Shown one piece after another: positions 5,572-64,000 of a stretch of 64,000 nucleotides of DNA. Position 1 is the stretch's first letter. Each line of letters starts with the position of its first letter. Under the pieces are notes generated by a model, which ran no database searches, was not told the origin of the DNA, and saw only the letters and a list, made by a program, of their open reading frames with translations. Where the stretch lies: assembly GCA_963836075.1 (NCBI GenBank), contig CAWIIB010000009.1, positions 3,008,001-3,072,000 on the forward strand, given 5' to 3'. This DNA comes from an uncultured Acidobacteriota bacterium (GTDB taxonomy: Bacteria > Acidobacteriota > JAQAZP01). The position numbers and the translations under genes are program-made.

Positions 5572-5580
5572 AAAGTAAAA

Positions 5581-5600
5581 CGGCCGCCCGAAGGCGGCCG
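5581..5600 (-). terminator. Intrinsic terminator hairpin between convergent genes
   Basis: CGGCCGCC-CGAA-GGCGGCCG preceded by an A-run, which is a U-tract on the minus strand. Confidence 0.65.
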
Positions 5601-5744
5601 GATCAAGGAGTCATTCTTCCAGTTCAGGGCACTGTGGTTACAGTGGGATTCGGTTGGAGGGATTTGGGTTTTACGGTCCTGAACGTTTGTCGGGACCGCG
5701 CTGGCCGGGGCGGCGATGGAGTCTGCCGCCCCGGCCTCACAGGG

Positions 5745-6440
5745 TCAGTTGGCGCGTTCGATGGTGATCAGGGCCACCGGATTGTTCCAGTCCTTGGCCG
5801 AGGCTTCCAGGTCGGCGATGCCGTGGATGCCGCTGTGCACCAGCACGAAACCTTCAGAGCCTTCGGTCACACGGACACCGGGGCTGCCGCAGGGCGGACC
5901 GGGAATGTGCTCGCAGGACTCGGTGTTCGCCTCGCTGCCGGCGTCATAGGCCCGGGCCGTGGTGGTCATGCGGTAGGGGCGATGGCCCCGAATTTCCACA
6001 CTGGCGCCGTCCACGCCGAGGAAGGCGTCGTTGGTGCTGACCAGCATACCGACCACGCTGATCAGACTCTGCTGGTGGGAAATGCTGACTTCCACGGTGA
6101 TCGATTCGCCGGGAAAGACCATACCGTCGGCGGCCATCACGTCCCGGACGCCGGTGGTGCCTTCCAGCAGATCGGCCAGCGGTCCAAACATGCCGTCTTC
6201 GGCCAGCATGGCCAGCTCATCGCTGGCCGGCTCGCCCAGCGTGAACACGGAAGCGCGCTTGTCGTGCGAGACCACCAGCGGCGGGCTGAAGATCTGATCG
6301 CTGGTGATGTTGGTGATGGTCACCGCAGCACGGAAAGCGGGGCTGATCTGCGCCGAAACGTCGACGGACGTGCCGAGGCTGAAAATGAGGGCCGCAGCGG
6401 CCAGGCCGAAAACCATTTTGCTCTTGAGGGTGCTCTTCAT
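5745..6440 (-). CDS. Secreted spondin_N domain protein
   Basis: Signal peptide; ITNIT..QIFSPPLVVSH; LAMLAEDG; MLVSTNDAFLG; AYDAGSEANTE. Confidence 0.88.
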   Translation of the reverse strand: MKSTLKSKMVFGLAAAALIFSLGTSVDVSAQISPAFRAAVTITNITSDQIFSPPLVVSHDKRASVFTLGEPASDELAMLAEDGMFGPLADLLEGTTGVRDVMAADGMVFPGESITVEVSISHQQSLISVVGMLVSTNDAFLGVDGASVEIRGHRPYRMTTTARAYDAGSEANTESCEHIPGPPCGSPGVRVTEGSEGFVLVHSGIHGIADLEASAKDWNNPVALITIERAN

Positions 6441-50601: not shown

Positions 50602-51030
50602 CCCCGGGCTGTTGCTGGCAACTGGTTGCCGCCCGTTGGCGGCACACGATTATAGGGGTATGGGTGAAAGGGGATCAACAGGGTAGAGAGGCAAAAAAAG
50701 TGGGGAGGTTGCCCTCCCCGAATATCTAATCAGAAGGTTTGGTAATCCTGGGCCCGCCGCCGGGATCGCAGTTTCCTTACCCGTCTCCCTAAAAAACGGT
50801 TCGGAATGCCGCCACTCGCGAAATGCACGGCCAACGAAACCACGGTAAGCCCGCCCGAAAATATACGCAATAATCCTGCCACAGGCAACCCCCTTGCTTC
50901 GTTCAGCCTAATCCGTTTAAATTGTATGGTTTTCTGAATGGTCTGCCACATACACGAATGACGCCATAAATCCAAAAAGTTGAATTTTCTTCATGATTTT
51001 GGAGTTTTGAGCTCCAGGGAGGAACCCGTG

Positions 51031-52509
51031 ATGAACAGCGAAAAGATGGTCCGCAGCCGGATCCTGATGGTTGCCATATGCTGCTCTGCCGTCCTGATCA
51101 CTGATCCCGCTGCGGTCTGGCCGGCCGACGATCCGGCGCTGGTCACCTCCACCGCGGAGCAGCGGGAGGAGTTGGCCCTCACCGTGTACAACCAGGGCTT
51201 CGGGCTGGTGAGCGACGTTCGCCGGGTGGACCTTCCCCGAGGTTCGTTCCAGATGCGCTGGGCCGACGTAGCGCAGCAGCTGGACCCGGACTCGGTGGCC
51301 CTGGTCCAGCCGGGAGGGGCGGAGGGGCTGACCGTGTTGGAGCAGTTCTACGACGACGACCTTGTGGCGCCGGCCCGCCTGATGGAGTTTTACGTCGGCC
51401 GGGAGATCACCCTGGTGCAGGAGGACCGGGACCTGCGGGAGAAACGGATCACGGCGCGGCTGCTCAGCACGTCCGGCCCCACCGTGGAGGTGGACGGCGC
51501 GGTGGTGCTGGGACATCCGGGCCGGGTGGAGCTGCCGGAACTGCCGCCGGGACTGCTGCTCCGGCCGGCCCTGGGCTGGCTGGCCCACAGCGGGGAAGCG
51601 GCCGGTCCGACGCTGCTGGAGGCCCGCTATCTCACCGGGGGGATCGGTTGGACCGCCGTCTACCGGTTGGGGCTGAACCGGGACGAGGATGCGGCCGATC
51701 TTGCCGGCTGGGTGTCGGTGGAGAACCGCAGCGGCACCGACTTCCCGGGTGCCCTCCTGCGGCTGGTGGCCGGCGACGTGAACCGCATTGCCCCCGCGGC
51801 CCGGCACGACTCCCGGGCAAAGATACTTCGGGCCCCGGCGGCGGAGATGGACTATGCCGCTGAAGCGGGCGCCGGTTTCGGCGAGGAGGCGCTCTCGGGG
51901 TATCATCTGTACACTCTGGAGCGGCCGGCCGCTGTGCTGGACAACCGGACCACCCGTATCGCCCTTGCCGAGGCGTCCGGTGTGCCGGTGACTCGGCAGC
52001 TGGTGTTGCGCGGGAATCCCGCCCACTCACGCAACCGGTACGGGGAGCCGCAGCAGGAGCCGGTGGCCGTGGTGTTGCGACTGGGCAACAGCGAGAAAAA
52101 CGGGCTGGGGCGGCCCCTGCCCGCCGGGGTCTGGCAGGTGTTCAAGGAGGACGCCTCCGGCACGCAGCTCTTTATCGGTGAGAATCGCATCGGCCACTCG
52201 GCGCGGGGAACCGAAGTGGTGATCGGAGTGGGCCACAGCTTCGACGTCACCGCCGAGCGGGTGCAGACCGACTACCGCAAGCTGAGCAATGTGCGCTGGG
52301 ACGTGGAGACGGCCTGGCGGATCACCCTGCGCAACGGCAGCGCCCGCGGCGTGGAGGTGCTGGTGCGCGAACCGGTGCAGGGTCAGTGGGAGCTCCGCAG
52401 CGCCAGCCAGGAGCACACCCGGGTGGACGCGACCACGCTGGGGTTCGAGGTGCCGGTGGCCGCCGGGTCTTCCACGGTGCTGGAATACCGCGTGGCGATC
52501 GACTGGTAG
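51031..52509 (+). CDS. DUF4139-domain secreted protein
   Basis: LTVYNQGFGLV, YLTGGIGW..Y, LVAGDVN, YHLYTL, LG.PLPAG. Confidence 0.82.
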   Translation: MNSEKMVRSRILMVAICCSAVLITDPAAVWPADDPALVTSTAEQREELALTVYNQGFGLVSDVRRVDLPRGSFQMRWADVAQQLDPDSVALVQPGGAEGLTVLEQFYDDDLVAPARLMEFYVGREITLVQEDRDLREKRITARLLSTSGPTVEVDGAVVLGHPGRVELPELPPGLLLRPALGWLAHSGEAAGPTLLEARYLTGGIGWTAVYRLGLNRDEDAADLAGWVSVENRSGTDFPGALLRLVAGDVNRIAPAARHDSRAKILRAPAAEMDYAAEAGAGFGEEALSGYHLYTLERPAAVLDNRTTRIALAEASGVPVTRQLVLRGNPAHSRNRYGEPQQEPVAVVLRLGNSEKNGLGRPLPAGVWQVFKEDASGTQLFIGENRIGHSARGTEVVIGVGHSFDVTAERVQTDYRKLSNVRWDVETAWRITLRNGSARGVEVLVREPVQGQWELRSASQEHTRVDATTLGFEVPVAAGSSTVLEYRVAIDW

Positions 52510-52556
52510 GAATCCTCGCCACAGGTCAGGGGGCCGGCGGGGCAAGGGGAGACGCG

Positions 52557-54302
52557 ATGGAAGCGAAGTCCGGATACGTGCTCGGGGTCAACTTCAGCCA
52601 CGACCGCTCGGCCTGTCTGCTGCGGGACGGCGAGATCGTCACCGCGGTGGCCGAGGAGCGCCTGGACCGCATCAAGCGTTCCGAGGGGTGCCTCTACGTG
52701 CGGGGCCGCAAGGGCGGCCGGACCATGCCCAACTTCGCCATCGCGTACTGCCTCGATGCCGCCGGCATCGGCATTGACGACCTCGACCTGCTGGTCATCG
52801 ACCACGCCCTGACCCCGGTGGACCTTCCGTTCCTGCGGCGGATGATCCCGATGAAGGACAAGCAGCGCATCCGTGCGCTGCCCCACCCCTCGCACCACCT
52901 GGCCCACGCGGCCACCGTCTACCACACCTCGGGCTTTGACGAAGCGGCGGTGCTGGTGGCCGACGCCTTCGGCAGCACCACCCGGGCCGGAGTGGAGTGC
53001 GAGACCGGGTTCAGCGCCCGGGGACCGGTGATCGAGCCGGTGTTCCGGAACTTCCAGACCAACCAGCGGGCGCAGTTCCTCTGCCTCACCGGCATGTACC
53101 GGCTGGTGACCCAGATCCTCGGCTTTGTGGTCCCGGATCAGCCCGACCAGCGGGCGCTGGCCCTGGACGATGCGGGCAAGACCATGGGGCTGGCAGCCCA
53201 CGGGGCGGCCCGTGATGACTGGCCGCCCTTTATCAGGTTTCCCAACCGGGGGAAGGCCGACGGCTCTCCGGTGATGATGGACTTTTCCGGTGTGCTGGAC
53301 TGGCTGGAGCAGCAGGAACTGATCTCCTTCAACCGGGACCAGCGGACGGGGCGGATGATCCTCGACATCGCCATCCGCGAACACGATGAACCACTCACCG
53401 GCCTGCACCGCGACCTGGCCACCCGGGTGCAGGAGGAGTTCACCACGGCGATGATCGCCATCGTCCGGGAACTGCACCGGATCACCGGCCAGCCCCGGCT
53501 CTGCCTCTCCGGCGGAGCGGCGCTGAACTCGGTGGCCAACACCCGGATCGTCGATGAGACACCCTTTGAAGAGGTGTTCATCTTTCCCGCCGGCACCGAC
53601 GACGGCAACGCCTTGGGCTGCGCCTACCAGGGCCACTACCAGATGCTGGACCAGCCCTGGTCGCCGCGGCCGCTGGCCTCGCCGTTCCTCGGGATCGAAT
53701 ACGGCGAGGAGCAGTGCCGCCAGGCCGCCGCCGGTCTCGGACTGCTGCCGAAGAAAGCGGGCAGCGACGAGGAGATCGTGGAGTGGGCCGCCGGGGCGCT
53801 GGACGCGGGAAAGGTGGTGGGCTGGTTCCAGGGCGGCAGCGAGATCGGCCCGCGGGCACTGGGCCACCGCAGCCTGCTGGCCGACCCGCGACGGCCGGAA
53901 TCGGTGGAGTCGCTGAACAGGGCGATCAAGTTCCGCGAGCCGTTCCGTCCCTACGCCCCCAGCGTGATCGAGGAACGGCAGGCCGAGTTCTTCCAGCTGG
54001 ACCGGCCCAGCCCCTACATGTTGCTGGTGGCGCCGGTTCGCCCTGAAAAGCGGGCGGCCATTCCGGCGGTGACCCATGTGGACGGGACAGCCCGGGTTCA
54101 GACGGTGAGCCGCGCCGGCGACCCGCTCTACCACCGCCTCATCGAGCGTTTCGGGGAGCTGAGCGGCATACCGCTGCTGCTAAACACCTCGATGAACCGT
54201 GCGGGTGAGCCGATGGTGGAGTCGCCGGTGGACGCGGCGCGCCTGTTCAGGGGCACCAAGCTGGATGCGATGGTGCTGGGCCGATTCTATTTCGAGAAAT
54301 GA
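52557..54302 (+). CDS. NodU/CmcH-family carbamoyltransferase
   Basis: HDRSACL, EERLDRIK, HHLAHA, GKTMGLA, GPRALGHRS, KFREPFRP, HVDGTARVQ, LNTS. Confidence 0.93.
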   Translation: MEAKSGYVLGVNFSHDRSACLLRDGEIVTAVAEERLDRIKRSEGCLYVRGRKGGRTMPNFAIAYCLDAAGIGIDDLDLLVIDHALTPVDLPFLRRMIPMKDKQRIRALPHPSHHLAHAATVYHTSGFDEAAVLVADAFGSTTRAGVECETGFSARGPVIEPVFRNFQTNQRAQFLCLTGMYRLVTQILGFVVPDQPDQRALALDDAGKTMGLAAHGAARDDWPPFIRFPNRGKADGSPVMMDFSGVLDWLEQQELISFNRDQRTGRMILDIAIREHDEPLTGLHRDLATRVQEEFTTAMIAIVRELHRITGQPRLCLSGGAALNSVANTRIVDETPFEEVFIFPAGTDDGNALGCAYQGHYQMLDQPWSPRPLASPFLGIEYGEEQCRQAAAGLGLLPKKAGSDEEIVEWAAGALDAGKVVGWFQGGSEIGPRALGHRSLLADPRRPESVESLNRAIKFREPFRPYAPSVIEERQAEFFQLDRPSPYMLLVAPVRPEKRAAIPAVTHVDGTARVQTVSRAGDPLYHRLIERFGELSGIPLLLNTSMNRAGEPMVESPVDAARLFRGTKLDAMVLGRFYFEK

Positions 54303-54597: not shown

Positions 54598-54777
54598 GTG
54601 GACAGTTCAAGTCCCGAATCTCACGAATGTAAACCCCCTTGGTAGGCAATCAAGTGCCGACAGTGGGAAAAGATATTCTCCTCCCATTGGACTCTCCTGA
54701 AAGCTGCCATTTCTTAACACTGTTAACTCTTTGAGGCTCTATTAAATCTCATTATTTCTCCCCTTGGGGTTTTACGC

Positions 54778-54821
54778 TTGCAGTGGCACAGCAATTGCTT
54801 TATAAAATCAACAAGTTGTTG
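54778..54821 (+). promoter_or_regulatory. Candidate promoter of operon copy 1: sigma54-like -24/-12 overlapping a sigma70-like element, plus a palindromic operator
   Basis: TGGCAC-AGCAA-TTGCT (54784-54799); TTGCAG-N17-TATAAA (54778-54806); CAACAA-G-TTGTTG (54809-54821). Confidence 0.6.
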
Positions 54822-54974
54822 TGTTTTTGCGCTTTCTGAGGAATGAGCCCGAGTTTCTTTAATGGCTTCATTTCACGGCCTCCCGTGGCCCCCGGCCCTT
54901 GAGAACCCCGGTTTAGACCATTCACCTGATCTGCGCGCTTGTTTTACTAACTCCAAACCAAAGGAGAACCAGCC

Positions 54975-55862
54975 ATGGGAATTCATCGGTCACTCCGGAT
55001 GGTCGCCGTCGCCTGCATCGTCATGCTGGCCTGGGCGCCACTGGGAGCCTGGCAGGGTGTTGCCCGGGAGGGTACGCCCCTGCCGTCGAACACCACGCAT
55101 CTGGCGGTTCAGCTGACCACGCAGCAGCCGGTCAGCCCCACCCCGGGGATTCCCGAACGGGTCTACCCGGTGGACGCCTACAACCAGGGGAGCGACATCT
55201 GGCTCGCCATCCCGTCATCGGTTGCCGGCACGGACTTCGCCGGAGCCACGGTGCGGGTCTGCATCACGCCCCACCGGACCGTGCTGGACGGCTGGACGGA
55301 CGGCGCCGGGATCAAGGACTGCAGCGGCGGTTTCGAGACGGTGATGCTGCAGGCGGGGAGTTCGGCGGACAACTACGTGCTGGGCTGGAGCGGAGCCTGC
55401 ACCCTCGGCCGCTACGATGTGATCGTCGACTTCGAACCCTTTGGTGTCTACAACCTCGGCCGGGACATGATCGACCACGCCGGAATCGGCGGCTTCCAGG
55501 TGCTGGACAGCCGGGCCATCGACTACGTGCTGATCAGCCCCGATCGTGGGTGCGCCCGGATCATCGGCAACCAGTCCTACGTGGGCGGGCTCTACGAGCC
55601 GACCGAGGAGTTCGTACTCAACAGCTGGAACAACGGGATCAACGGGATTCCCGAGTACGGCGGCGGCGACGACGTGTTCGAGGGCATCCTTGCCGCCACC
55701 TGGTCCACCACGGTGGGCGGCAGCGTGGGCCGCATCGATTCGAGCACCGGTCTTTACGTGGCCGGGGGCTTCACCGGTGAAGGCGACGTCACGGCCTTCG
55801 CTTTCGGCGGCTGGACCGACACGGCATATGTCATGAGCACCACCCCCTCCTGGGTGCCGTAA
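54975..55862 (+). CDS. Secreted protein with QHNDH alpha-subunit C-terminal (domain IV)-like region, no heme motifs (copy 1)
   Basis: Signal peptide; VLISP..GCARIIGN...F...WNNG.NG.....DD...G...ATW...G.ID..TGLY..G...TPSW resembles the QhpA C-terminus; no CxxCH; next to the qhpC-like gene. Confidence 0.65.
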   Translation: MGIHRSLRMVAVACIVMLAWAPLGAWQGVAREGTPLPSNTTHLAVQLTTQQPVSPTPGIPERVYPVDAYNQGSDIWLAIPSSVAGTDFAGATVRVCITPHRTVLDGWTDGAGIKDCSGGFETVMLQAGSSADNYVLGWSGACTLGRYDVIVDFEPFGVYNLGRDMIDHAGIGGFQVLDSRAIDYVLISPDRGCARIIGNQSYVGGLYEPTEEFVLNSWNNGINGIPEYGGGDDVFEGILAATWSTTVGGSVGRIDSSTGLYVAGGFTGEGDVTAFAFGGWTDTAYVMSTTPSWVP

Positions 55863-55903
55863 AAAATCGTCCCTCCGGGCTTTGCTTCAAGGAGAGAAAC
55901 ACG

Positions 55904-56200
55904 ATGAAACATCTCAAGCCCCTGAACAAGCGGGCGATGAAACTGAGCGGCGACGAGGATCGCCCCGACGTCTTCGGCTACGCCTGCAGCATCTGCTGCA
56001 CGGCCTGGGCCCCGGGCTGGGAGGTGGGCGACGATCCGTATCCCGTCGACCCCTGCCCCTGGATGAGCGACCTGTCGCTCTGCTGGGTCACCTGCTACTG
56101 GACCGGCCAGGTGGCCGACGACACGGCGGAACCCAACTGGCTCGACGACTGTTCCCTGGTCTCCGAAGACTGGGTCCGTATCTGCGTGGTCCCCGACTGA
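55904..56200 (+). CDS. QHNDH gamma-subunit (QhpC)-like Cys-rich precursor peptide (copy 1)
   Basis: MKHLKPLNK leader; C-x5-PGWEV; C-x4-DL-x2-C-x3-C-YW-x2-QV-x-D; EDW; strong AAGGAG RBS. Confidence 0.88.
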   Translation: MKHLKPLNKRAMKLSGDEDRPDVFGYACSICCTAWAPGWEVGDDPYPVDPCPWMSDLSLCWVTCYWTGQVADDTAEPNWLDDCSLVSEDWVRICVVPD

Positions 56201-56228
56201 TCACAGCGGCATATCCTGGAGGAAATCG

Positions 56229-57287
56229 ATGCAATCACGAAAAAGTTTCAGGATCCCGCGGGTCAGGGGACGATTCCCCGCCGTGTGGCTCTGCGCGTGC
56301 CTGCTGCTCACCCTGGCGGCGGCACCCGCTCTTGCGGGACAGCGCACCATCTTCGCCGGGGGCAACCACATCATGGTCATCGACGAGGCGACCATGAACG
56401 TGTTGGGCCAGATCCCGGTGCAGAAACATATCCACCAGCTGGTGGTGGACCAGGCCCGCGAACGGCTTTACGCCGCGCACAGCGGCGGGGTGGAGATCTT
56501 CAACGCCCGGTCTTACGCCTCGCTGGGCTTCTTTGCTGAGGACCCGGCCCGGCGGCTGGAGCTGAGCGCCGACGGCAATACGCTCTACGCCCTGACCCAC
56601 CCGATCCTGGTCAACGCCGACGGGCAGAAGCACGCCGGTGAATACGCGATCCAGATCATCGACCTGGTGCAGAGCAAGGTCAGCGGCTCGGTGAACCTGG
56701 GCTACGATATCTTTGACGCGGTGGTGGACCCGGTCAACGGCAAGGTGTTCGCCATGAAACGGTTCGACCGTTCGCTTTCCGTGCACAGCCTGGCCGAGGG
56801 CAAGCGGGTGGCCACGGTGAACGTGGCTTCGAACTTCGACCCGATGAAGGTCAACCTGCTGCACTTCATGTCCTCGAGCCCCGACGGGCAGCACCTCTAC
56901 GTGCCGCAGCACGGGGCATCGGCCTGTGTCTTCGACGTGGATACCCAGTCCGGCGCGTCGCGGCCCATCGACCTCGGCGGCGAGTATTTCATCCGCGACT
57001 CCCAGGTCTCGCCCGACGGGCGGAGCCTCTTCCTGCTCACTGCCGACCAGGTGATGGTGGTGGACACGGTGGGTCGGAGGGTGGCGGCCTCCGCGCCGCT
57101 GGAGGAGGTCTACATCGGCCTCGACCTCAGTGCCGACGGCTCCCGGGCCTACCTCAGCAACCCGCTGCACGGGGACGGCAGCGCCGGCAACCTGCTGGTG
57201 CTCGACGCCCGCTCACTCAAGGAGAGGGGGATGGTGGCGACCCCCGGCTTGTCCCTGTTCACGGCAGCTGCCTTCGAGCGTGACTGA
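56229..57287 (+). CDS. Secreted YVTN/YncE beta-propeller, QHNDH beta-subunit-like (copy 1)
   Basis: Signal peptide; repeated S[AP]DG..LY blades; follows the qhpC-like gene as qhpB does. Confidence 0.72.
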   Translation: MQSRKSFRIPRVRGRFPAVWLCACLLLTLAAAPALAGQRTIFAGGNHIMVIDEATMNVLGQIPVQKHIHQLVVDQARERLYAAHSGGVEIFNARSYASLGFFAEDPARRLELSADGNTLYALTHPILVNADGQKHAGEYAIQIIDLVQSKVSGSVNLGYDIFDAVVDPVNGKVFAMKRFDRSLSVHSLAEGKRVATVNVASNFDPMKVNLLHFMSSSPDGQHLYVPQHGASACVFDVDTQSGASRPIDLGGEYFIRDSQVSPDGRSLFLLTADQVMVVDTVGRRVAASAPLEEVYIGLDLSADGSRAYLSNPLHGDGSAGNLLVLDARSLKERGMVATPGLSLFTAAAFERD

Positions 57288-57308
57288 AGTTAGGAAGGAA
57301 AGAAGATC

Positions 57309-59690
57309 ATGAGCACTTGTTCCAAACGATTTCTGACCGTCCTGCTCACGCTGTGGGCGGTGGGGGCGCTCTGCGTCGTCCCGGCCCAGGCCGGGTTCGA
57401 AAAGATCGTTCTCGACGGCGGCGTGAACGGACCGAAGTCCATCCAGGTGGTGGACCTTGACGGGGTCAACGGCCTCGACATACTGGCGGTCCACGCCTTT
57501 GACGACCGGGTGGTGTGGTATGAGAACCTCGGCAACGAGGTCTACTCCATGCACAGCATCGGCACGATGAGCAACCCCTCGTCGGTGGCCGCGGGCGACC
57601 TGAACAACGACGGGTCTCTCGACCTGGTGGTGACCAGTTTCTCCGTCGGTCCCGAAAACTGGTATGTCTCCTACTACCTCAACGACGGCAGCGAGAACTT
57701 CACCCAGCACACCGTAGACAGCACCATGATGGGCGCCGAGGAAGTGGTGCTGGCCCATCTCGACAGCGGCACCAGTCTCGATATCGCGGTGGTGGGCTAC
57801 GAGTCGGACACCGTTGCCTGGTACAAGAACGACGGCGCGGCAACGCCGAGTTTCACCCGGCAGATCATCGCCAGCGACAAGGTCCAGTCCGAGTCGATCG
57901 ACGCTGCGGACCTCGACGGCGACGGTGACATCGACCTGGTGACCTCCGCCTTCCTGGACAACGAGATCCTCTGGTGGGAAAACTCCGGCGGCGCTTCGCC
58001 GACCTTCACCGAGCACGTGGCCTCGGGCCTGGTCAACGGCCCCAAGGACGTGGGTTTCGCCAATGTCGACGGCGACGGCGACCTGGACATCGTGGCCGTC
58101 TCCTTTTTCGATGACGAGGTGGTCTGGCTGGAGAACAACGGCCTCGAAACCTTCACCACCATCGTGGCCGGCGCCACGGCGCTCGGCCCGGTGGCCGTGG
58201 ACGCCGCCGACCGCAACGGCGACACCTTCGTCGACCTGGTGGTGTGCTGTTTCGACGGCGACGAGGTTGATTCATTCACCAACGACGGCCTGGAGAACTT
58301 CACCATGACCGTCGTCGACCCCGCCCTGGGCGGCGCCGAGTCACCGGTGGTGGTGGACCTGGACCAGGACGGCGAGGCCGACCTGGTGGCCGCAGGCTTC
58401 TTCGACGACAACATCGTCTGGTATGTCAACCAGGCGATCTTCTACGACGGGTTCACACTGGACGACACCGCCGGCGGCAACGGCGACGGCAACCCCGACC
58501 CGGGCGAGACCATCACCCTGGTGGTGGATATCCGCAACGAGGGGGATGGCACCCTCACCGGCGTCTCTGGCCAGCTGGACTCCAACCAGCCCGGCTACCT
58601 GACCTGGATCGACGACACCGCCAGCTATCCCGACATCCCGCCGGCAAGCAGCGCCTCGAGCAACTCACCGCACTTCAAGTTCACCCTGTCCCAGTCCACC
58701 CCCTGTGGCCAGGCCATCAGCTTCTCCTTTGACATGTTCTCCGACCAGGACAACGGCGGTGACGGCTTTGGCATGGGTATCGGCGGGATCGTCGATGACA
58801 TGGAGAGCGGCGAAGGCGCCTGGACCCATTACGCCGACATCGGCGTCGACGATTGGGCCATTGTGACCGTGGCCGAGGCGCACAGCCCGACCAGTGCCTG
58901 GTATGCCAGCGATGCCCCCGTCGACACCGACAAGAGCCTGATCTCCCCACCGGTGAACATCGCCGGCACCGGGGAATTCCGCTTCTGGCATACCTACAGC
59001 TACGAGAACTACTACGACGGCTGCATTATCGAGATCTCCACCGACGGCGGCTCCAGCTGGGCCGATATCGGCGGTCTGATCACTTCGGGCAACGGTTACA
59101 ACAACACACTGAGTGGCGGTAATCCGCTGGGTGCCGTTGAGGCGTGGTCTGGTGGCAACATCGGTGCCATGGAAGAAGTTGTTGTGGACCTCTCAAGCTA
59201 CAATGGAGAGACGGTGAACATCCGCTTCCACATGGGGTGCGACTACTCCATTGGCAGCACGGGCTGGTATATCGACGATGTGACCCTCGATGACTGCCAG
59301 GTCTACCAGGGCTCCACCATGGACTGCGACTACACCATCACCCCGCTGAGCGGCACCGTGCCGTTCCTGACGGTGCACCGCATCACCCTGTTCAACAACC
59401 TGGCCGGCGGCGCGGTCTACACGCGGCGGATCTCCGGGCGGATCGCGGTGACCATCGCCAACGGCACCACCTACAACCCCTGGCGTGCCGGTTACACCAA
59501 TATCGCGCCGTCCAGCACTTACTACAACCAGTTCCCGGTGAACTTCCCCGGGCTGCCCACGGTGCTGGGGGACAACACCTTCGTCCTCAATGCCATGGAC
59601 GTCACACCGGTGCCCTACAACCAGCCGCCCTATCCGCCGTCCGGCGATACGTGCACCACCACCAACGTGGTCAATGCGCACGCGCCCTAG
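57309..59690 (+). CDS. Secreted FG-GAP/VCBS propeller protein with PGE-type Ig domain, jelly-roll (InhA/MAM-like) domain and unrecognised C-terminal domain (copy 1)
   Basis: About 7 DxDxDGxxD..WYEN repeats; GNGDGNPDPGETITL; DDMESG..FWH..YDG..EISTDGG..GWYIDDV; C-terminal NQPPYPPSGD. Confidence 0.82.
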   Translation: MSTCSKRFLTVLLTLWAVGALCVVPAQAGFEKIVLDGGVNGPKSIQVVDLDGVNGLDILAVHAFDDRVVWYENLGNEVYSMHSIGTMSNPSSVAAGDLNNDGSLDLVVTSFSVGPENWYVSYYLNDGSENFTQHTVDSTMMGAEEVVLAHLDSGTSLDIAVVGYESDTVAWYKNDGAATPSFTRQIIASDKVQSESIDAADLDGDGDIDLVTSAFLDNEILWWENSGGASPTFTEHVASGLVNGPKDVGFANVDGDGDLDIVAVSFFDDEVVWLENNGLETFTTIVAGATALGPVAVDAADRNGDTFVDLVVCCFDGDEVDSFTNDGLENFTMTVVDPALGGAESPVVVDLDQDGEADLVAAGFFDDNIVWYVNQAIFYDGFTLDDTAGGNGDGNPDPGETITLVVDIRNEGDGTLTGVSGQLDSNQPGYLTWIDDTASYPDIPPASSASSNSPHFKFTLSQSTPCGQAISFSFDMFSDQDNGGDGFGMGIGGIVDDMESGEGAWTHYADIGVDDWAIVTVAEAHSPTSAWYASDAPVDTDKSLISPPVNIAGTGEFRFWHTYSYENYYDGCIIEISTDGGSSWADIGGLITSGNGYNNTLSGGNPLGAVEAWSGGNIGAMEEVVVDLSSYNGETVNIRFHMGCDYSIGSTGWYIDDVTLDDCQVYQGSTMDCDYTITPLSGTVPFLTVHRITLFNNLAGGAVYTRRISGRIAVTIANGTTYNPWRAGYTNIAPSSTYYNQFPVNFPGLPTVLGDNTFVLNAMDVTPVPYNQPPYPPSGDTCTTTNVVNAHAP

Positions 59691-59717
59691 AAGCCGGCGG
59701 TAACTTCGGTACACACC

Positions 59718-59749
59718 AGGCCCCCGGGAGCGATCCCGGGGGCCTTTTT
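59718..59749 (+). terminator. Intrinsic terminator ending operon copy 1
   Basis: AGGCCCCCGGGA-GCGA-TCCCGGGGGCCT followed by a T-run. Confidence 0.9.
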
Positions 59750-59880
59750 ACATGCGTTCAATCCCAGTGGCAGAGCATGGAATGAGCGATAGGGCACCAC
59801 CGCCTGGCCGGACGCATTGGCGATGTTATGTAAAGCTTTGAAAAAAATAGGACTATTTTTACTGTTGATACGACTCCGAC

Positions 59881-59926
59881 TTGCACAAGAACGACAATTG
59901 CTTTATATATAATCAACAAGTTGTTG
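59881..59926 (+). promoter_or_regulatory. Candidate promoter of operon copy 2 with the same palindrome
   Basis: TTGCAC-N17-TATATA; CAACAA-G-TTGTTG at 59914-59926; the sigma54 -24 GG is absent (AAGAAC). Confidence 0.5.
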
Positions 59927-60080
59927 GTTTTTTGGCGCTTTTTGAGGAATGAGCCCGAGTTTCTTTAATGGCTTCATTTCACGGCCTCCCGCGGCCCCCG
60001 GCCTTTGAGACTCAAGGTATTCACCATTCACCTGATCTGCGCACCTGTTCTGCTAACTCCAAACCAAAGGAGAACCAGCC

Positions 60081-60968
60081 ATGGGAATTCATCGGTCACT
60101 CCGGATGGTCGCCGTCGCCTGCATCGTCATGCTGGCCTGGGCGCCACTGGGAGCCTGGCAGGGTGTTGCCCGGGAGGGTACGCCCCTGCCGTCGAACACC
60201 ACGCATCTGGCGGTTCAGCTGACCACGCAGCAGCCGGTCAGCCCCACCCCGGGGATTCCCGAACGGGTCTACCCGGTGGACGCCTACAACCAGGGGAGCG
60301 ACATCTGGCTCGCCATCCCGTCATCGGTTGCCGGCACGGACTTCGCCGGAGCCACGGTGCGGGTCTGCATCACGCCCCACCGGACCGTGCTGGACGGCTG
60401 GACGGACGGCGCCGGGATCAAGGACTGCAGCGACGGTTTCGAGACGGTGATGCTGCAGGCGGGGAGTTCGGCGGACAACTACGTGCTGGGCTGGAGCGGA
60501 GCCTGCACCCTCGGCCGCTACGATGTGATCGTCGACTTCGAACCCTTTGGTGTCTACAACCTCGGCCGGGACATGATCGACCACGCCGGAATCGGCGGCT
60601 TCCAGGTGCTGGACAGCCGGGCCATCGACTACGTGCTGATCAGCCCCGATCGTGGGTGCGCCCGGATCATCGGCAACCAGTCTTACGTGGGCGGGCTCTA
60701 CGAGCCGACCGAAGAGTTGGTACTCAACAGCTGGAACAACGGGATCAACGGGATTCCCGAGTACGGCGGCGGCGACGACGTGTTCGAGGGCATCCTTGCC
60801 GCCACCTGGTCCACCACGGTGGGCGGCAGCGTGGGCCGCATCGATTCGAGCACCGGTCTGTACGTGGCCGGGGGCTTCACCGGTGAAGGCGACGTCACGG
60901 CCTTCGCTTTCGGCGGCTGGACCGACACGGCATATGTCATGAGCACCACCCCCTCCTGGGTGCCGTAA
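60081..60968 (+). CDS. Heme-less QHNDH alpha-like secreted protein (copy 2)
   Basis: Identical to copy 1 except G>D (CSDG) and F>L (EELVL). Confidence 0.65.
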   Translation: MGIHRSLRMVAVACIVMLAWAPLGAWQGVAREGTPLPSNTTHLAVQLTTQQPVSPTPGIPERVYPVDAYNQGSDIWLAIPSSVAGTDFAGATVRVCITPHRTVLDGWTDGAGIKDCSDGFETVMLQAGSSADNYVLGWSGACTLGRYDVIVDFEPFGVYNLGRDMIDHAGIGGFQVLDSRAIDYVLISPDRGCARIIGNQSYVGGLYEPTEELVLNSWNNGINGIPEYGGGDDVFEGILAATWSTTVGGSVGRIDSSTGLYVAGGFTGEGDVTAFAFGGWTDTAYVMSTTPSWVP

Positions 60969-61009
60969 AAAATCGTCCCTCCGGGCTTTGCTTCAAGGAG
61001 AGAAACACG

Positions 61010-61303
61010 ATGAAACATCTCAAGCCCCTGAACAAGCGGGCGATGAAACTGAGCGGCGACGAGGATCGCCCCGACGTCTTCGGCTACGCCTGCAGCATCT
61101 GCTGCACGGCCTGGGCCCCGGGCTGGGAGGTCGGGGAGTCGGGGAACGTGGACCCCTGCCCCTGGATGAGCGACCTGTCGCTCTGCTGGGTCACCTGCTA
61201 CTGGACCGGCCAGGTGGCCGACGACACGGCGGAACCCGACTGGCTCGACGACTGTTCCCTGGTCTCCGAAGACTGGGTCCGTATCTGCGTGGTCCCCGAC
61301 TGA
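61010..61303 (+). CDS. QhpC/gamma-like Cys-rich precursor peptide (copy 2)
   Basis: As copy 1 but with loop GESGNVDP instead of GDDPYPVDP, and PDW instead of PNW. Confidence 0.88.
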   Translation: MKHLKPLNKRAMKLSGDEDRPDVFGYACSICCTAWAPGWEVGESGNVDPCPWMSDLSLCWVTCYWTGQVADDTAEPDWLDDCSLVSEDWVRICVVPD

Positions 61304-61331
61304 TCACAGCGGCATATCCTGGAGGAAATCG

Positions 61332-62390
61332 ATGCAATCACGAAAAAGTTTCAGGATCCCGCGGGTCAGGGGACGATTCCCCGCCGTGTGGCTCTGCGCG
61401 TGCCTGCTGCTCACCCTGGCGGCGGCACCCGCTCTTGCGGGACAGCGCACCATCTTCGCCGGGGGCAACCACATCATGGTCATCGACGAGGCAACCATGA
61501 ACGTGTTGGGCCAGATCCCGGTGCAGAAACATATCCACCAGCTGGTGGTGGACCAGGCCCGCGAACGGCTTTACGCCGCGCACAGCGGCGGGGTGGAGAT
61601 CTTCAACGCCCGGTCTTACGCCTCGCTGGGCTTCTTTGCCGAGGACCCGGCCCGGCGGCTGGAGCTGAGCGCCGACGGCAATACGCTCTACGCCCTGACC
61701 CACCCGATCCTGGTCAACGCCGACGGGCAGAAGCACGCCGGTGAATACGCGATCCAGATCATCGACCTGGTGCAGAGCAAGGTCAGCGGCTCGGTGAACC
61801 TGGGCTACGATATCTTTGACGCGGTGGTGGACCCGGTCAACGGCAAGGTGTTCGCCATGAAACGGTTCGACCGTTCGCTTTCCGTGCACAGCCTGGCCGA
61901 GGGCAAGCGGGTGGCCACGGTGAACGTGGCTTCGAACTTCGACCCGATGAAGGTCAACCTGCTGCACTTCATGTCCTCGAGCCCCGACGGGCAGCACCTC
62001 TACGTGCCGCAGCACGGGGCATCGGCCTGTGTCTTCGACGTGGATACCCAGTCCGGCGCGTCGCGGCCCATCGACCTCGGCGGCGAGTATTTCATCCGCG
62101 ACTCCCAGGTCTCGCCCGACGGGCGGAGCCTCTTCCTGCTCACTGCCGACCAGGTGATGGTGGTGGACACGGTGGGTCGGAGGGTGGCGGCCTCCGCGCC
62201 GCTGGAGGAGGTCTACATCGGCCTCGACCTCAGTGCCGACGGCTCCCGGGCCTACCTCAGCAACCCGCTGCACGGGGACGGCAGCGCCGGCAACCTGCTG
62301 GTGCTCGACGCCCGCTCACTCAAGGAGAGGGGGATGGTGGCGACCCCCGGCTTGTCCCTGTTCACGGCAGCTGCCTTCGAGCGTGACTGA
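61332..62390 (+). CDS. QHNDH beta-like beta-propeller (copy 2)
   Basis: Protein identical to copy 1; only synonymous changes seen. Confidence 0.72.
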   Translation: MQSRKSFRIPRVRGRFPAVWLCACLLLTLAAAPALAGQRTIFAGGNHIMVIDEATMNVLGQIPVQKHIHQLVVDQARERLYAAHSGGVEIFNARSYASLGFFAEDPARRLELSADGNTLYALTHPILVNADGQKHAGEYAIQIIDLVQSKVSGSVNLGYDIFDAVVDPVNGKVFAMKRFDRSLSVHSLAEGKRVATVNVASNFDPMKVNLLHFMSSSPDGQHLYVPQHGASACVFDVDTQSGASRPIDLGGEYFIRDSQVSPDGRSLFLLTADQVMVVDTVGRRVAASAPLEEVYIGLDLSADGSRAYLSNPLHGDGSAGNLLVLDARSLKERGMVATPGLSLFTAAAFERD

Positions 62391-62411
62391 AGTTAGGAAG
62401 GAAAGAAGATC

Positions 62412-64000
62412 ATGAGCACTTGTTCCAAACGATTTCTGACCGTCCTGCTCACGCTGTGGGCGGTGGGGGCGCTCTGCGTCGTCCCGGCCCAGGCCGGGTT
62501 CGAAAAGATCGTTCTCGACGGCGGCGTGAACGGACCGAAGTCCATCCAGGTGGTGGACCTTGACGGGGTCAACGGCCTCGACATGGTGGCGGTCCACACC
62601 TTTGACGACCGGGTGGTGTGGTACGAGAATAGCGGAACCGAGTTTTTTACCATGCATGTGATCGGCACGATGAGCAACCCCTCGTCGGTGGCCGTGGGTG
62701 ACCTGAACAACGACGGGTCTCTCGACCTGGTGGTGACCAGTTTCTACGCCGGTTCCGAAAACTGGTATATCTCCTACTACCTCAACGACGGCAGCGAGAA
62801 CTTCACCCAGCACACTATCGACACCATCCTCGACGGCGCGGAAGAAGTGGTGCTGGCCCATCTCGACAGCGGCACCAGCCTCGATATCGCGGTGGTGGGC
62901 TACGAAGCGGATGCCGTGGCCTGGTATGAGAGCGACGGTGCGGCAACGCCGAACTTCACCCGCCAGATCATCGCCACCGACAAGGTGCACTCCGAGTCCA
63001 TCGACGCCGCGGACCTCGACGGCGACGGTGACATCGACCTGGTGACTTCCGCTTTCTACGACAACGAGATCCTCTGGTGGGAAAACTCCGGCGGCGCTTC
63101 GCCGACCTTCACCGAACACGTGGCCTCGGGCCTGGTCAGCGGCCCCAAGGACGTGGGTTTCGCCAATGTCGACGGCGACGGCGACCTGGACATCGTGGCC
63201 GTCTCCTTTTTCGATGACGAGGTGGTCTGGTTGGAGAACAACGGCCTCGAAACCTTCACCACCATCGTGGCCGGCGCCACGGCGCGCGGCCCGGTGGCCG
63301 TGCACGCCGCCGACCGCAACGGCGACACCTTCATCGACCTGGTGGTGGGCTGCTTCGACGGCGACGAGGTAGATTCATTCACCAACGACGGCCTGGAGAA
63401 CTTCACCATGGCCGTCGTCGACCCCGCCCTGGGCGGTGCCGAGTCGCCGGTGGTGGTGGACCTGGACCAGGACGGCGAGACCGACCTGGTGGCCGCCGGC
63501 TTCTATGACGACAACATCGTCTGGTATGTCAACAAGTCCATCTTCTTTGACGGCTACACCTTCGACGACACCGCCGGCGGCAACGGCGACGGCAACCCCG
63601 ACCCGGGCGAGACCATCACCCTGGTGCTGGACATCCGCAACGAGGGGGATGGCACCCTCACCGGCGTCTCTGGCCAGCTGGACTCCAACCTGCCCGGCTA
63701 CCTGACCTGGATCCACGACACCGCCAGCTATCCCGACATCCCGGCGGCGAGCAGCGCCTCGAGCAACTCACCGCACTTCAAGTTCAGCCTGGCCCAGGAC
63801 ACCCCCTGTGGCCAGGGGATCACCTTCACCTTTGACATGTTCTCCGACCAGGACAACGGCGGCTCCGGTTTCGGCATGACCGTGGGCGGGATCATCGACG
63901 ACATGGAAAGCGGCGAAGGCGACTGGACCCACTATGCGTACGCCGGAACCGACGACTGGGCCATCGTGACCCTGGCCCAGGCCCACAGTCCGACCCAGGC
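62412..64000 (+). CDS. FG-GAP surface protein (copy 2), 3'-truncated by the window edge
   Basis: ATG at 62412; open frame to the end of the window; missing from the ORF track because no stop is reached; diverged paralog of 57309-59690. Confidence 0.9.
   Translation, partial: MSTCSKRFLTVLLTLWAVGALCVVPAQAGFEKIVLDGGVNGPKSIQVVDLDGVNGLDMVAVHTFDDRVVWYENSGTEFFTMHVIGTMSNPSSVAVGDLNNDGSLDLVVTSFYAGSENWYISYYLNDGSENFTQHTIDTILDGAEEVVLAHLDSGTSLDIAVVGYEADAVAWYESDGAATPNFTRQIIATDKVHSESIDAADLDGDGDIDLVTSAFYDNEILWWENSGGASPTFTEHVASGLVSGPKDVGFANVDGDGDLDIVAVSFFDDEVVWLENNGLETFTTIVAGATARGPVAVHAADRNGDTFIDLVVGCFDGDEVDSFTNDGLENFTMAVVDPALGGAESPVVVDLDQDGETDLVAAGFYDDNIVWYVNKSIFFDGYTFDDTAGGNGDGNPDPGETITLVLDIRNEGDGTLTGVSGQLDSNLPGYLTWIHDTASYPDIPAASSASSNSPHFKFSLAQDTPCGQGITFTFDMFSDQDNGGSGFGMTVGGIIDDMESGEGDWTHYAYAGTDDWAIVTLAQAHSPTQ

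Follow-up and report, generated by a model that had tools for sequence, protein, structure and literature searches.

A stretch of 64,000 nucleotides from the genome of an uncultured Acidobacteriota bacterium (G000:C9:3008001-3072000; hereafter the window) ends, at positions 54975-64000, in two tandem four-gene cassettes. The first three products of each are relatives of the alpha, gamma and beta subunits of quinohemoprotein amine dehydrogenase (QHNDH), and the fourth is an FG-GAP protein. We propose, with a probability of roughly 0.6 and on grounds of homology, that these are the structural cassettes of a heme-less enzyme carrying cysteine tryptophylquinone (CTQ). The enzyme would be matured in trans by the products of a third cluster just beyond the window, among them a U32 protein and its partner P313, which would hydroxylate the tryptophan of the CTQ precursor. 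The most interesting part lies just outside 54975-64000: the flavoprotein QhpG appears to be replaced by a UbiU/UbiV-like pair.

Gamma, beta and alpha-like subunits

Against NF037958, the equivalog model of the QHNDH gamma subunit, gamma 1 scores 50.1 bits and gamma 2 scores 52.3 bits (cut-off 50). In the alignment with the solved gamma chain of Paracoccus QHNDH, 1jju_C (E 1.2e-5), all key residues find their counterparts: C31/E40, C51/D56, C60 with W66, and C64/D72 of gamma face Cys7/Glu16, Cys27/Asp33, Cys37 with Trp43, and Cys41/Asp49. We take Cys7-Glu16 and Cys27-Asp33 to be cross-linked pairs of the QHNDH subunit. According to PMC7876137, CTQ consists of Cys37 and Trp43, Cys41-Asp49 forms a thioether ring, Asp33 lies near the cofactor, and the QHNDH gamma leader is 28 residues long. 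The maturase QhpD forms one Cys-Glu and two Cys-Asp links (PMC13692751). As residues, the CTQ Cys/Trp pair and the three Cys-Asp/Glu pairs required in a QHNDH gamma subunit are all present, and none of 36 aligned, diverse members of the gamma family departs from C31, W39, C51, D56, C60, C64 or W66. At 90% identity, the members of this new-type family found in 5.8 billion proteins fall into about 42 clusters. Its gammas have eight Cys, compared to four or five in canonical gamma. For one family member the NCBI name already reads 'quinohemoprotein amine dehydrogenase subunit gamma', although 'quinohemoprotein' is misleading in a system without a heme subunit. The leaders of gamma 1, gamma 2 and the gamma 3 of the third cluster are similar (MKHL[KR]P[LM]N..A), so that one QhpD could serve all three, and maturation in trans is a reasonable inference.

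Beta aligns with a profile of 14 canonical QhpB sequences over 296 columns (30-341 against 14-342; hhalign 99.6%, E 9.8e-25). Its score with TIGR03907 (E 1.1e-6, 28 bits) is far under the equivalog cut-off of 223, which makes it a distant QhpB-type member.

Has alpha' kept anything of the QHNDH alpha subunit? No CxxCH motif occurs in the 17 proteins of the three clusters, alpha 1 and alpha 3 included, and alpha' has no di-heme cytochrome c N-terminal domain of the QHNDH type. Canonical acidobacterial QhpA has two CxxCH motifs in 14 of 14 extracted sequences. A di-heme alpha encoded elsewhere in the organism's own genome was considered and rejected, since a profile of 15 canonical QhpA sequences matched only domain IV of alpha 3 there. 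The C-terminal 120-130 residues of alpha' do resemble the canonical QhpA profile (hhalign 95.8%, E 6.9e-9), and alpha 3 scores 26.8 bits against PF09100, the model of QhpA domain IV (cut-off 25). When the alpha' fold was searched against 48,161 chains, the top match was residues 347-483 of the QHNDH alpha chain 1pby_A (Z 10.4, root-mean-square deviation 3.6, 103 residues aligned), ahead of a second-best match at Z 8.3. Judged by profile and modelled fold, the C-terminal part of alpha' (residues ~176-293) is a QhpA domain IV-like Ig domain. The first-pass annotation had described a heme-free alpha keeping only a domain IV-like part and had taken alpha, gamma and beta for genuine QHNDH relatives; profile comparison bears this out for all three. 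In the QhpA of the Paracoccus sanguinis plasmid (L015:5274-6830), a simple pattern finds only one CxxCH, and AACH stands at the position of the acidobacterial first motif.

The N-domain of alpha' is a candidate for a beta-rich module not described before. Among 1.84 billion representatives, a profile search with alpha' gave 278 matches at E<=0.001, mostly to N-domains inside large proteins of 500-2500 aa. The N-domain is often repeated within single large metagenomic proteins and occurs nowhere else in the organism's own genome. The full two-domain architecture of ~300 aa was found in only three clusters of the 278 matches. In a Pfam scan of ten of these matches, the seven that match via the N-domain gave no family, and the only families seen were PF09100 in P0019 and FlgD_ig in P0037. 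Searching PDB sequences with alpha' by phmmer gave nothing meaningful, and the best ESM Atlas score for residues 31-180 was 0.76, under the meaningful level; a Big_1 lead is among these matches. A complex prediction for alpha' (31-295), gamma (25-98) and beta (37-352), with a separate alignment per chain and alpha as the partner, was run without controls and speaks neither for nor against binding (score 0.02, mark 0.32).

FG-GAP protein 1 matches PF13517 in five stretches (94.5 bits), PF20773 (34.7 bits) and NF038128 (30.9 bits), and falls just below the 22.1-bit cut-off of PF01839 with 22.0 bits. The heme-less cassette with its FG-GAP gene recurs in all four other loci that extend beyond beta (L012, L013, L077 and L078), so what had been called an added adhesin-like gene is a conserved fourth member. 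The marine and Gemmatimonadota loci lack the FG-GAP partner, which is thus lineage-specific. A role of the FG-GAP/MAM protein in substrate or surface binding is our guess.

Predicted maturation genes beyond the window and the U32 pair

The first-pass annotation had found qhpD missing from its slot and had concluded that a scaffold left without maturase had been put to a new use. Inside the window the gene is indeed missing, but the genome has it. A search of the genome located a QhpD-like gene together with a third gamma gene at C9:3076610-3078403. The QhpD-like gene itself (G000:C9:3076610-3078013) lies 4.6 kb past the window end and directly upstream of gamma 3, in a third paralogous cluster that begins ~4.4 kb past the window end. 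The apparent loss is therefore a window-edge effect. With QhpD, a QhpE-like protease and an ATP-binding cassette (ABC) exporter encoded just beyond the window, the idea of a repurposed, maturase-free scaffold finds no support. The window cassettes are satellite structural sets, and the maturases belong to the master cluster next to them.

In this locus just past the window end (L011, C9:3071001-3090000), FG-GAP copy 2 is followed by a minus-strand, B12-type radical S-adenosylmethionine (SAM) gene, alpha 3, the QhpD-like gene, gamma 3, beta 3, P378, P313, the peptidase-U32 protein, the ABC exporter, the QhpE-like S8 protease and two FG-GAP genes. For the QhpD-like protein, TIGR03906 is the best of 62 matching families (390.6 bits). 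The S8 protease matches the QhpE model NF049966 (154.6 bits), and the exporter stands in the position expected for QhpF and matches generic exporter models only. P378 (L011:8602-9738), a second secreted propeller after beta 3, is a beta paralogue (hhalign 98.6% to the beta family) that is also present in L013, L080, L081 and L014; it is possibly an extra subunit. The B12-type gene (L011:2493-4193, minus strand; window-equivalent ~65.5-67.2 kb) is a 566-aa open reading frame (ORF) with weak Radical_SAM and B12-binding matches. It is kept at 74-87% identity in L012, L013, L080 and L081, and the distant locus L083 has a 38%-identical homologue upstream of QhpD. Possibly its product introduces yet another modification into the 8-Cys gamma.

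How could the gamma tryptophan be converted to CTQ in this organism? In QHNDH, biogenesis of CTQ requires the O2-dependent flavoprotein QhpG (PMC7876137). When QhpG of the canonical query operon (Paracoccus sanguinis plasmid, order G / A-D-C-B-E-F / R) was searched against the organism's own genome, the best match reached only E 0.002 over 53 residues, a Rossmann match. An acidobacterial QhpG query gave nothing at E<=0.001 in this genome, but of 15 other genomes tested with it, 10 have a clear orthologue beside qhp. The genome is 94.7% complete, so that absence of QhpG is likely, not proven. This absence, and the U32 pair in the place of QhpG, had been overlooked in the first pass.

The U32 protein (P0005) matches PF01136 (119.1 bits), the UbiU model (E 1.4e-29) and the TrhP model (E 8e-22). 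It is 29% identical to E. coli UbiU over 194 residues (E 4.7e-18) and scores 103 bits against the UbiU equivalog, whose cut-off is 440. Each of the cysteines that bind the Fe-S cluster in E. coli UbiU (C169, C176, C193 and C232; PMC6747719) has a counterpart in it (C190, C197, C210 and C248). Its neighbour P313 (313 aa) has 368 relatives at E<=0.001, one of them with the JGI name 'Collagenase and related proteases'. P313 has no Pfam match, U32 included, and its profile found only a chance-level short-chain dehydrogenase match among PDB sequences. The P313 model is a TIM barrel (pLDDT 84.7). Its invariant cysteines C65, C229, C248 and C252 form a CXnCX18CX3C motif, compared to CXnCX12CX3C in UbiV, where the first Cys is likewise far upstream (PMC6747719). 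In PMC10990095, U32 proteins are proposed to be O2-independent, prephenate-dependent hydroxylases of aromatic rings, and most U32 subfamilies are without known substrate.

Like UbiU-UbiV of E. coli (YhbU/YhbV, ubiquinone hydroxylases of the peptidase U32 family that work without O2; TrhP and RlhA are comparable too), P313 and the U32 protein are encoded by two adjacent genes, one of them a clear U32 member with the four Fe-S cysteines, the other with a far-upstream Cys and a CX18CX3C motif near that of UbiV. Unlike the E. coli system, no UbiT-like gene was seen in the cluster, and the proposed substrate is a protein tryptophan rather than a prenylphenol or an RNA base, which would be new for the family. 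The organism's own genome has only two U32 genes, and both adjoin a P313 homologue. The second pair (G000:C9:2802921-2804686, L074) has as neighbours a sulfatase-domain protein of 801 aa and an FG-GAP protein of 727 aa. The pair of genome G156 (L073) stands beside an arylsulfotransferase-like (ASST-like) propeller and a DoxX/MauE-like membrane protein. P313-U32 pairs may serve several secreted proteins.

Compared to QHNDH of Paracoccus denitrificans and Pseudomonas putida (qhpADCBEFGR; PDB 1jju, 1pby and 1jmx), the system as a whole has the gamma leader, the CTQ pair, the three cross-link pairs, the beta propeller and alpha domain IV in common. The A-(D)-C-B order is also shared: alpha', gamma and beta follow one another in both cassettes, as had been recognised for the first of them. 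So is a cluster with QhpD beside gamma and, less certainly, a QhpE-like subtilase and an ABC exporter of generic type. Unlike QHNDH, it has no di-heme domain and no recognisable alpha domains II-III (alpha' has 295 aa, QhpA of the P. sanguinis plasmid 518), and its genome offers U32 and P313 where QhpG gives no match. It has additional Cys in gamma (8 against 4-5), an extra beta paralogue in P378, FG-GAP genes, and extra structural cassettes without maturases of their own. An AraC-type QhpR was not among the genes scanned.

Cassette layout and distribution

The ORF listing confirms the four gene positions and lengths originally given for cassette 1, whose plus-strand genes are tightly packed (Table 1). 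The region 54975-64000 had been described as a single operon. The gene set of alpha-like, gamma, beta and FG-GAP stands; the single copy does not, since the span holds two tandem copies of this set, a duplication that had escaped notice. The repeat unit (54792-59786 against 59895-64895) is 94.5% identical over 5010 columns. It takes in the upstream spacer, which recurs ahead of cassette 2 from 54792 onward (54821-55120 and 59927-60226 are 95% identical). Shine-Dalgarno-like sequences precede gamma (AAGGAGAG) and beta (GGAGGAA). A promoter and a terminator of its own had also been claimed for the operon. A terminator-like hairpin is there, whereas a scan for sigma-70-like sites found none in the spacer and only two in all, both within FG-GAP genes (1.5 expected by chance), so that a promoter is plausible but not shown.

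Table 1. Features of the tandem cassettes, in window coordinates
Feature	Position	Strand	Description
Upstream spacer, cassette 1	54598..54974	+	lower G+C, 0.57-0.60; presumed promoter region
alpha' copy 1, 295 aa	54975..55862	+	signal-peptide-like N-terminus, N-domain, C-terminal QhpA domain IV-like Ig domain (predicted)
gamma 1, 98 aa	55904..56200	+	QhpC-like precursor with leader, 8 Cys
beta 1, 352 aa	56229..57287	+	secreted propeller, QhpB homologue
FG-GAP protein 1, 793 aa	57309..59690	+	signal peptide, FG-GAP propeller, MAM / choice-of-anchor-J-like middle domain, C-terminal domain
Intrinsic-terminator-like hairpin after cassette 1	59718..59745	+	12-pair stem, 10 G-C, then T run
alpha' copy 2, 295 aa	60081..60968	+	99.3% identical to copy 1
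gamma 2, 97 aa	61010..61303	+	93.9% identical to gamma 1
beta copy 2, 352 aa	61332..62390	+	protein 100% identical to copy 1
FG-GAP protein 2	62412..64000, cut by window end	+	full length 795 aa, ends at window-equivalent 64799

Divergence between the copies is a mosaic. Protein identity decreases from beta through alpha' to gamma (Table 1) and to 86.2% in the FG-GAP proteins, where it drops to 66-79% over alignment columns 501-700, the MAM / choice-of-anchor-J-like part. In gamma, the differences cluster in the E40-C51 loop (VGDDPYPVDPC in gamma 1, VGESG-NVDPC in gamma 2). Either gene conversion has kept alpha and beta alike or gamma and FG-GAP have diversified, both being possible sources of the mosaic, and we conjecture that the diverging gamma loop and MAM-like part would fit diversification of specificity. 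Pseudogenes were considered and rejected, since all eight ORFs of the two cassettes are intact. Directly upstream of cassette 1 lies a gene for a carbamoyltransferase of the NodU/CmcH type, syntenic and 86% identical in L012 and L079. It is preceded by a gene for a DUF4139 protein, and the two genes occupy window positions 52386-54302 and 50980-52509.

Gamma-like genes occur in 30 of the 401 genomes of our phylum sample. The close type was found only in two genomes of the same genus, with two gamma genes each, and the 20 other loci fetched from the phylum are all canonical A-D-C-B-F-E operons. P313 is present in 5 of the 401 genomes, all of which carry gamma. In four of them (G000, G007, G026 and G220) the P313-U32 pair lies inside the qhp cluster, and none of these four has a QhpG orthologue. 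In contrast, 10 of 12 other qhp genomes tested have QhpG next to qhp. The G220 operon (L048) is a canonical di-heme one that reads A-D-C-B-P313-U32-ABC-S8. Like the cluster studied here, it carries the P313-U32-ABC-S8 string after A-D-C-B and has no QhpG orthologue, the genome offering only 27%-identical paralogues, flavin adenine dinucleotide (FAD) enzymes on other contigs. Unlike that cluster, it encodes a complete QhpA of the di-heme kind (2 CxxCH; 879 bits with the QhpA profile) and a canonical 5-Cys gamma, has no FG-GAP match within +/-10 kb, and has a QhpD that falls in the canonical clade of a quick tree.

A metagenome scan with the gamma alignment yielded 30 loci, in which neither QhpG (either query) nor a di-heme QhpA gave a match at E<=1e-5. 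A P313 homologue follows beta in 15 of the 30, and among the matches listed, which do not include U32 rows for L080 and L081, U32 follows P313 in at least 7 of those 15. The full D-C-B-P313-U32-ABC-S8 string is found in five loci (L085, L089, L091, L092 and L095); L094 has it without an S8 match, and the L093 contig ends after U32. The layout of cassette, minus-strand B12 radical SAM gene and master cluster recurs in L012 (= G007), L013 (an Acidobacteriota metagenome-assembled genome, MAG), L080 and L081. Tandem cassettes exist elsewhere too, as L078 reads B-FGGAP-A-C-B. Alpha types vary: L091 and L014 encode a domain-IV-only protein, and L101 and L104 one of ~650 aa with a weak domain IV. In the marine loci an alpha-like gene was not detected within the DNA covered. 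A quick QhpD tree (SH-aLRT support, midpoint root) has two parts, one with the 19 rows of new-type loci, among which QhpG does not occur, the other with the 20 canonical rows, where G220, G278 and G359 form a subclade. Accessory enzyme and alpha type therefore vary partly independently.

In the Gemmatimonadota MAG locus L014, three full tandem gamma genes and a fragment (at 5187-5342) occupy 4418-5804. Ahead of them come QhpD, an alpha of 173 aa that consists of domain IV only, beta and a propeller resembling P378. With 10 Cys each, these gammas have lost the acceptor equivalent to Asp49 (ASVPG instead of QVADD).

Proposed maturation, rival explanations and meaning

For the heme-less CTQ enzyme we envisage the following route. 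The gamma precursors, which are without signal peptide, would be matured in the cytoplasm by the master-cluster enzymes. The QhpD-like radical SAM/SPASM enzyme would form three Cys-to-Asp/Glu thioethers, and the UbiU/UbiV-like pair of U32 Fe-S protein and P313 would hydroxylate the CTQ-precursor tryptophan in place of QhpG. The QhpE-like subtilase would then cut off the leader and the QhpF-like ABC exporter would take gamma to the periplasm. There gamma would assemble with the Sec-exported beta propeller and with alpha', which would give only its domain IV-like Ig domain and the new N-domain to the complex. More tentatively, and going by homology, the pair rather than QhpG could dihydroxylate the gamma tryptophan to CTQ without O2, the oxygen perhaps coming from prephenate. 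As there is no heme in such a complex, the electrons of the reduced quinone must pass to an external acceptor. Methylamine and aromatic amine dehydrogenases, which contain tryptophan tryptophylquinone (TTQ), have no built-in heme and deliver their electrons to a separate small redox protein; their subunits are unrelated, they depend on the di-heme enzyme MauG for biogenesis and they have no thioether staples. By analogy, a hand-off of the TTQ type is a plausible working model for the alpha'-gamma-beta complex.

Several observations weigh against this proposal. Homology and gene context are what we infer CTQ formation, the thioethers, maturation in trans, the hydroxylase role of U32, complex formation, amine oxidation and an external electron acceptor from. 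Family scores fall short of cut-offs for the QhpD-like protein (453), the QhpE-like protease (165), gamma 3 (41.4 bits against 50) and PF09100 in alpha 1 (18.2 bits). The AlphaFold2 model of alpha', built from 14 close sequences, has a mean pLDDT of 46.3 and is usable only at ~210-288, and the N-domain (~residues 40-176, window 55092-55502) belongs to no Pfam family. As for P313, the U32 peptidase 5d88 ties for the top fold match (Z 11.7) among many TIM barrels with Z>10; Foldseek lists generic TIM barrels first and 5d88 only at rank 29; hhalign to the neighbouring U32 protein is weak (48.9%); and the hidden Markov model comparison with E. coli UbiV is not significant. G156 has its pair elsewhere and retains QhpG beside qhp. 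Two canonical di-heme qhp genomes that are 99% complete, G278 (L047) and G359 (L049), have neither QhpG nor P313, which suggests a third CTQ route or a very divergent QhpG, and P313 is absent from three metagenome loci with room downstream (L083, L097 and L100). Taken together, these five imply that a third route must exist or that CTQ can form independently of QhpG. The organism's own genome also has two heme-copper oxidase genes, which indicates that it is not a strict anaerobe and makes O2 independence an option, not a necessity.

Could the enzyme be a heme-less CTQ enzyme in which P313-U32 has nothing to do with the cofactor? The pair might then make another modification, act on another substrate or be a protease, and the tryptophan would owe its oxidation to some oxygenase or to autocatalysis once the complex has assembled. 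We consider this unlikely, yet several observations favour it. The pairs away from qhp, beside the sulfatase-domain protein in G000 and the ASST-like propeller in G156, mean that serving qhp is not inherent to the pair; in G278 and G359 qhp occurs without QhpG and P313; and L083, L097 and L100 do without P313 despite room for it. The four extra Cys of gamma would need some other chemistry, and the B12-type radical SAM gene is conserved beside the cluster as well. What speaks for a part of the pair in cofactor formation is its fixed slot between beta and exporter (15 of 30 metagenome loci and the G220 operon), and the lack of QhpG in 4 of 4 genomes with an in-cluster pair while 10 of 12 others have it. 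The Fe-S cysteines of U32, kept 4/4, point the same way, as does the presence of a dedicated S8 leader protease.

It is quite improbable that gamma is instead a non-redox, thioether-stapled peptide on an alpha/beta scaffold, displayed by the FG-GAP protein as a structural or adhesive module and made in the manner of a peptide that is synthesized on ribosomes and modified after translation (RiPP), with no quinone at all. Such a display, which the first-pass annotation had offered as an option, would accord with the lack of heme and of a QhpG match. Further staples could come from the extra Cys, binding proteins typically have FG-GAP/MAM domains, and the loss of the Asp49 equivalent in the Gemmatimonadota locus means that the chemistry is not rigidly conserved. 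But invariance of the CTQ Cys and Trp, and of Asp56 (the Asp33 equivalent), in 36 of 36 family members is unexpected for a mere staple scaffold. The operon also conserves a hydroxylase-type module, and beta is conserved with QhpB over its full length. We give hardly any credence to the view that the second cassette is an assembly artefact or that the cassettes are decaying, functionless duplicates. Copies 94.5% identical are of a kind prone to mis-assembly, and the other two genomes of the genus show one cassette and the master cluster only. Yet the eight ORFs are intact, the cassettes lie on a 3.5 Mb contig, and the patterned divergence (beta 100%, alpha 99.3%, gamma 93.9%, FG-GAP 86.2%) is not what a collapsed or duplicated assembly gives. 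An independent metagenome contig (L078) has the B-FGGAP-A-C-B order. Logan contigs from two other samples join the FG-GAP 3' end or the spacer to a cassette 5' region, which is weak evidence because they are short and none spans both cassettes.

The heme-less CTQ enzyme with a U32-type hydroxylase pair thus stays our preferred explanation. In open-access PMC and bioRxiv main texts, neither a heme-less QHNDH nor a U32 protein linked to tryptophylquinone was found; the first-pass annotation had put the system forward as a candidate undescribed one. The heme-less alpha indicates that the catalytic core of QHNDH, gamma and beta, can work with quite different partners, and it raises the question of acceptor and substrate. 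A conserved kind of operon in which the CTQ residues, QhpD, the QhpE-like protease and the exporter are retained while a U32 Fe-S pair stands in for QhpG offers a concrete candidate, open to testing, for making a protein-derived quinone independently of O2. If the explanation is true, a U32 pair making CTQ would provide the first protein-residue substrate for U32 hydroxylases, and the operon would assign a substrate to an orphan U32 subfamily. Bacteria of sediment and seawater would then harbour a whole clade of quinoprotein dehydrogenases that have neither heme nor QhpG, in which variable alpha-like subunits, together with the diversifying FG-GAP/MAM partners and multiplied cassettes of this lineage, would widen the substrate range.

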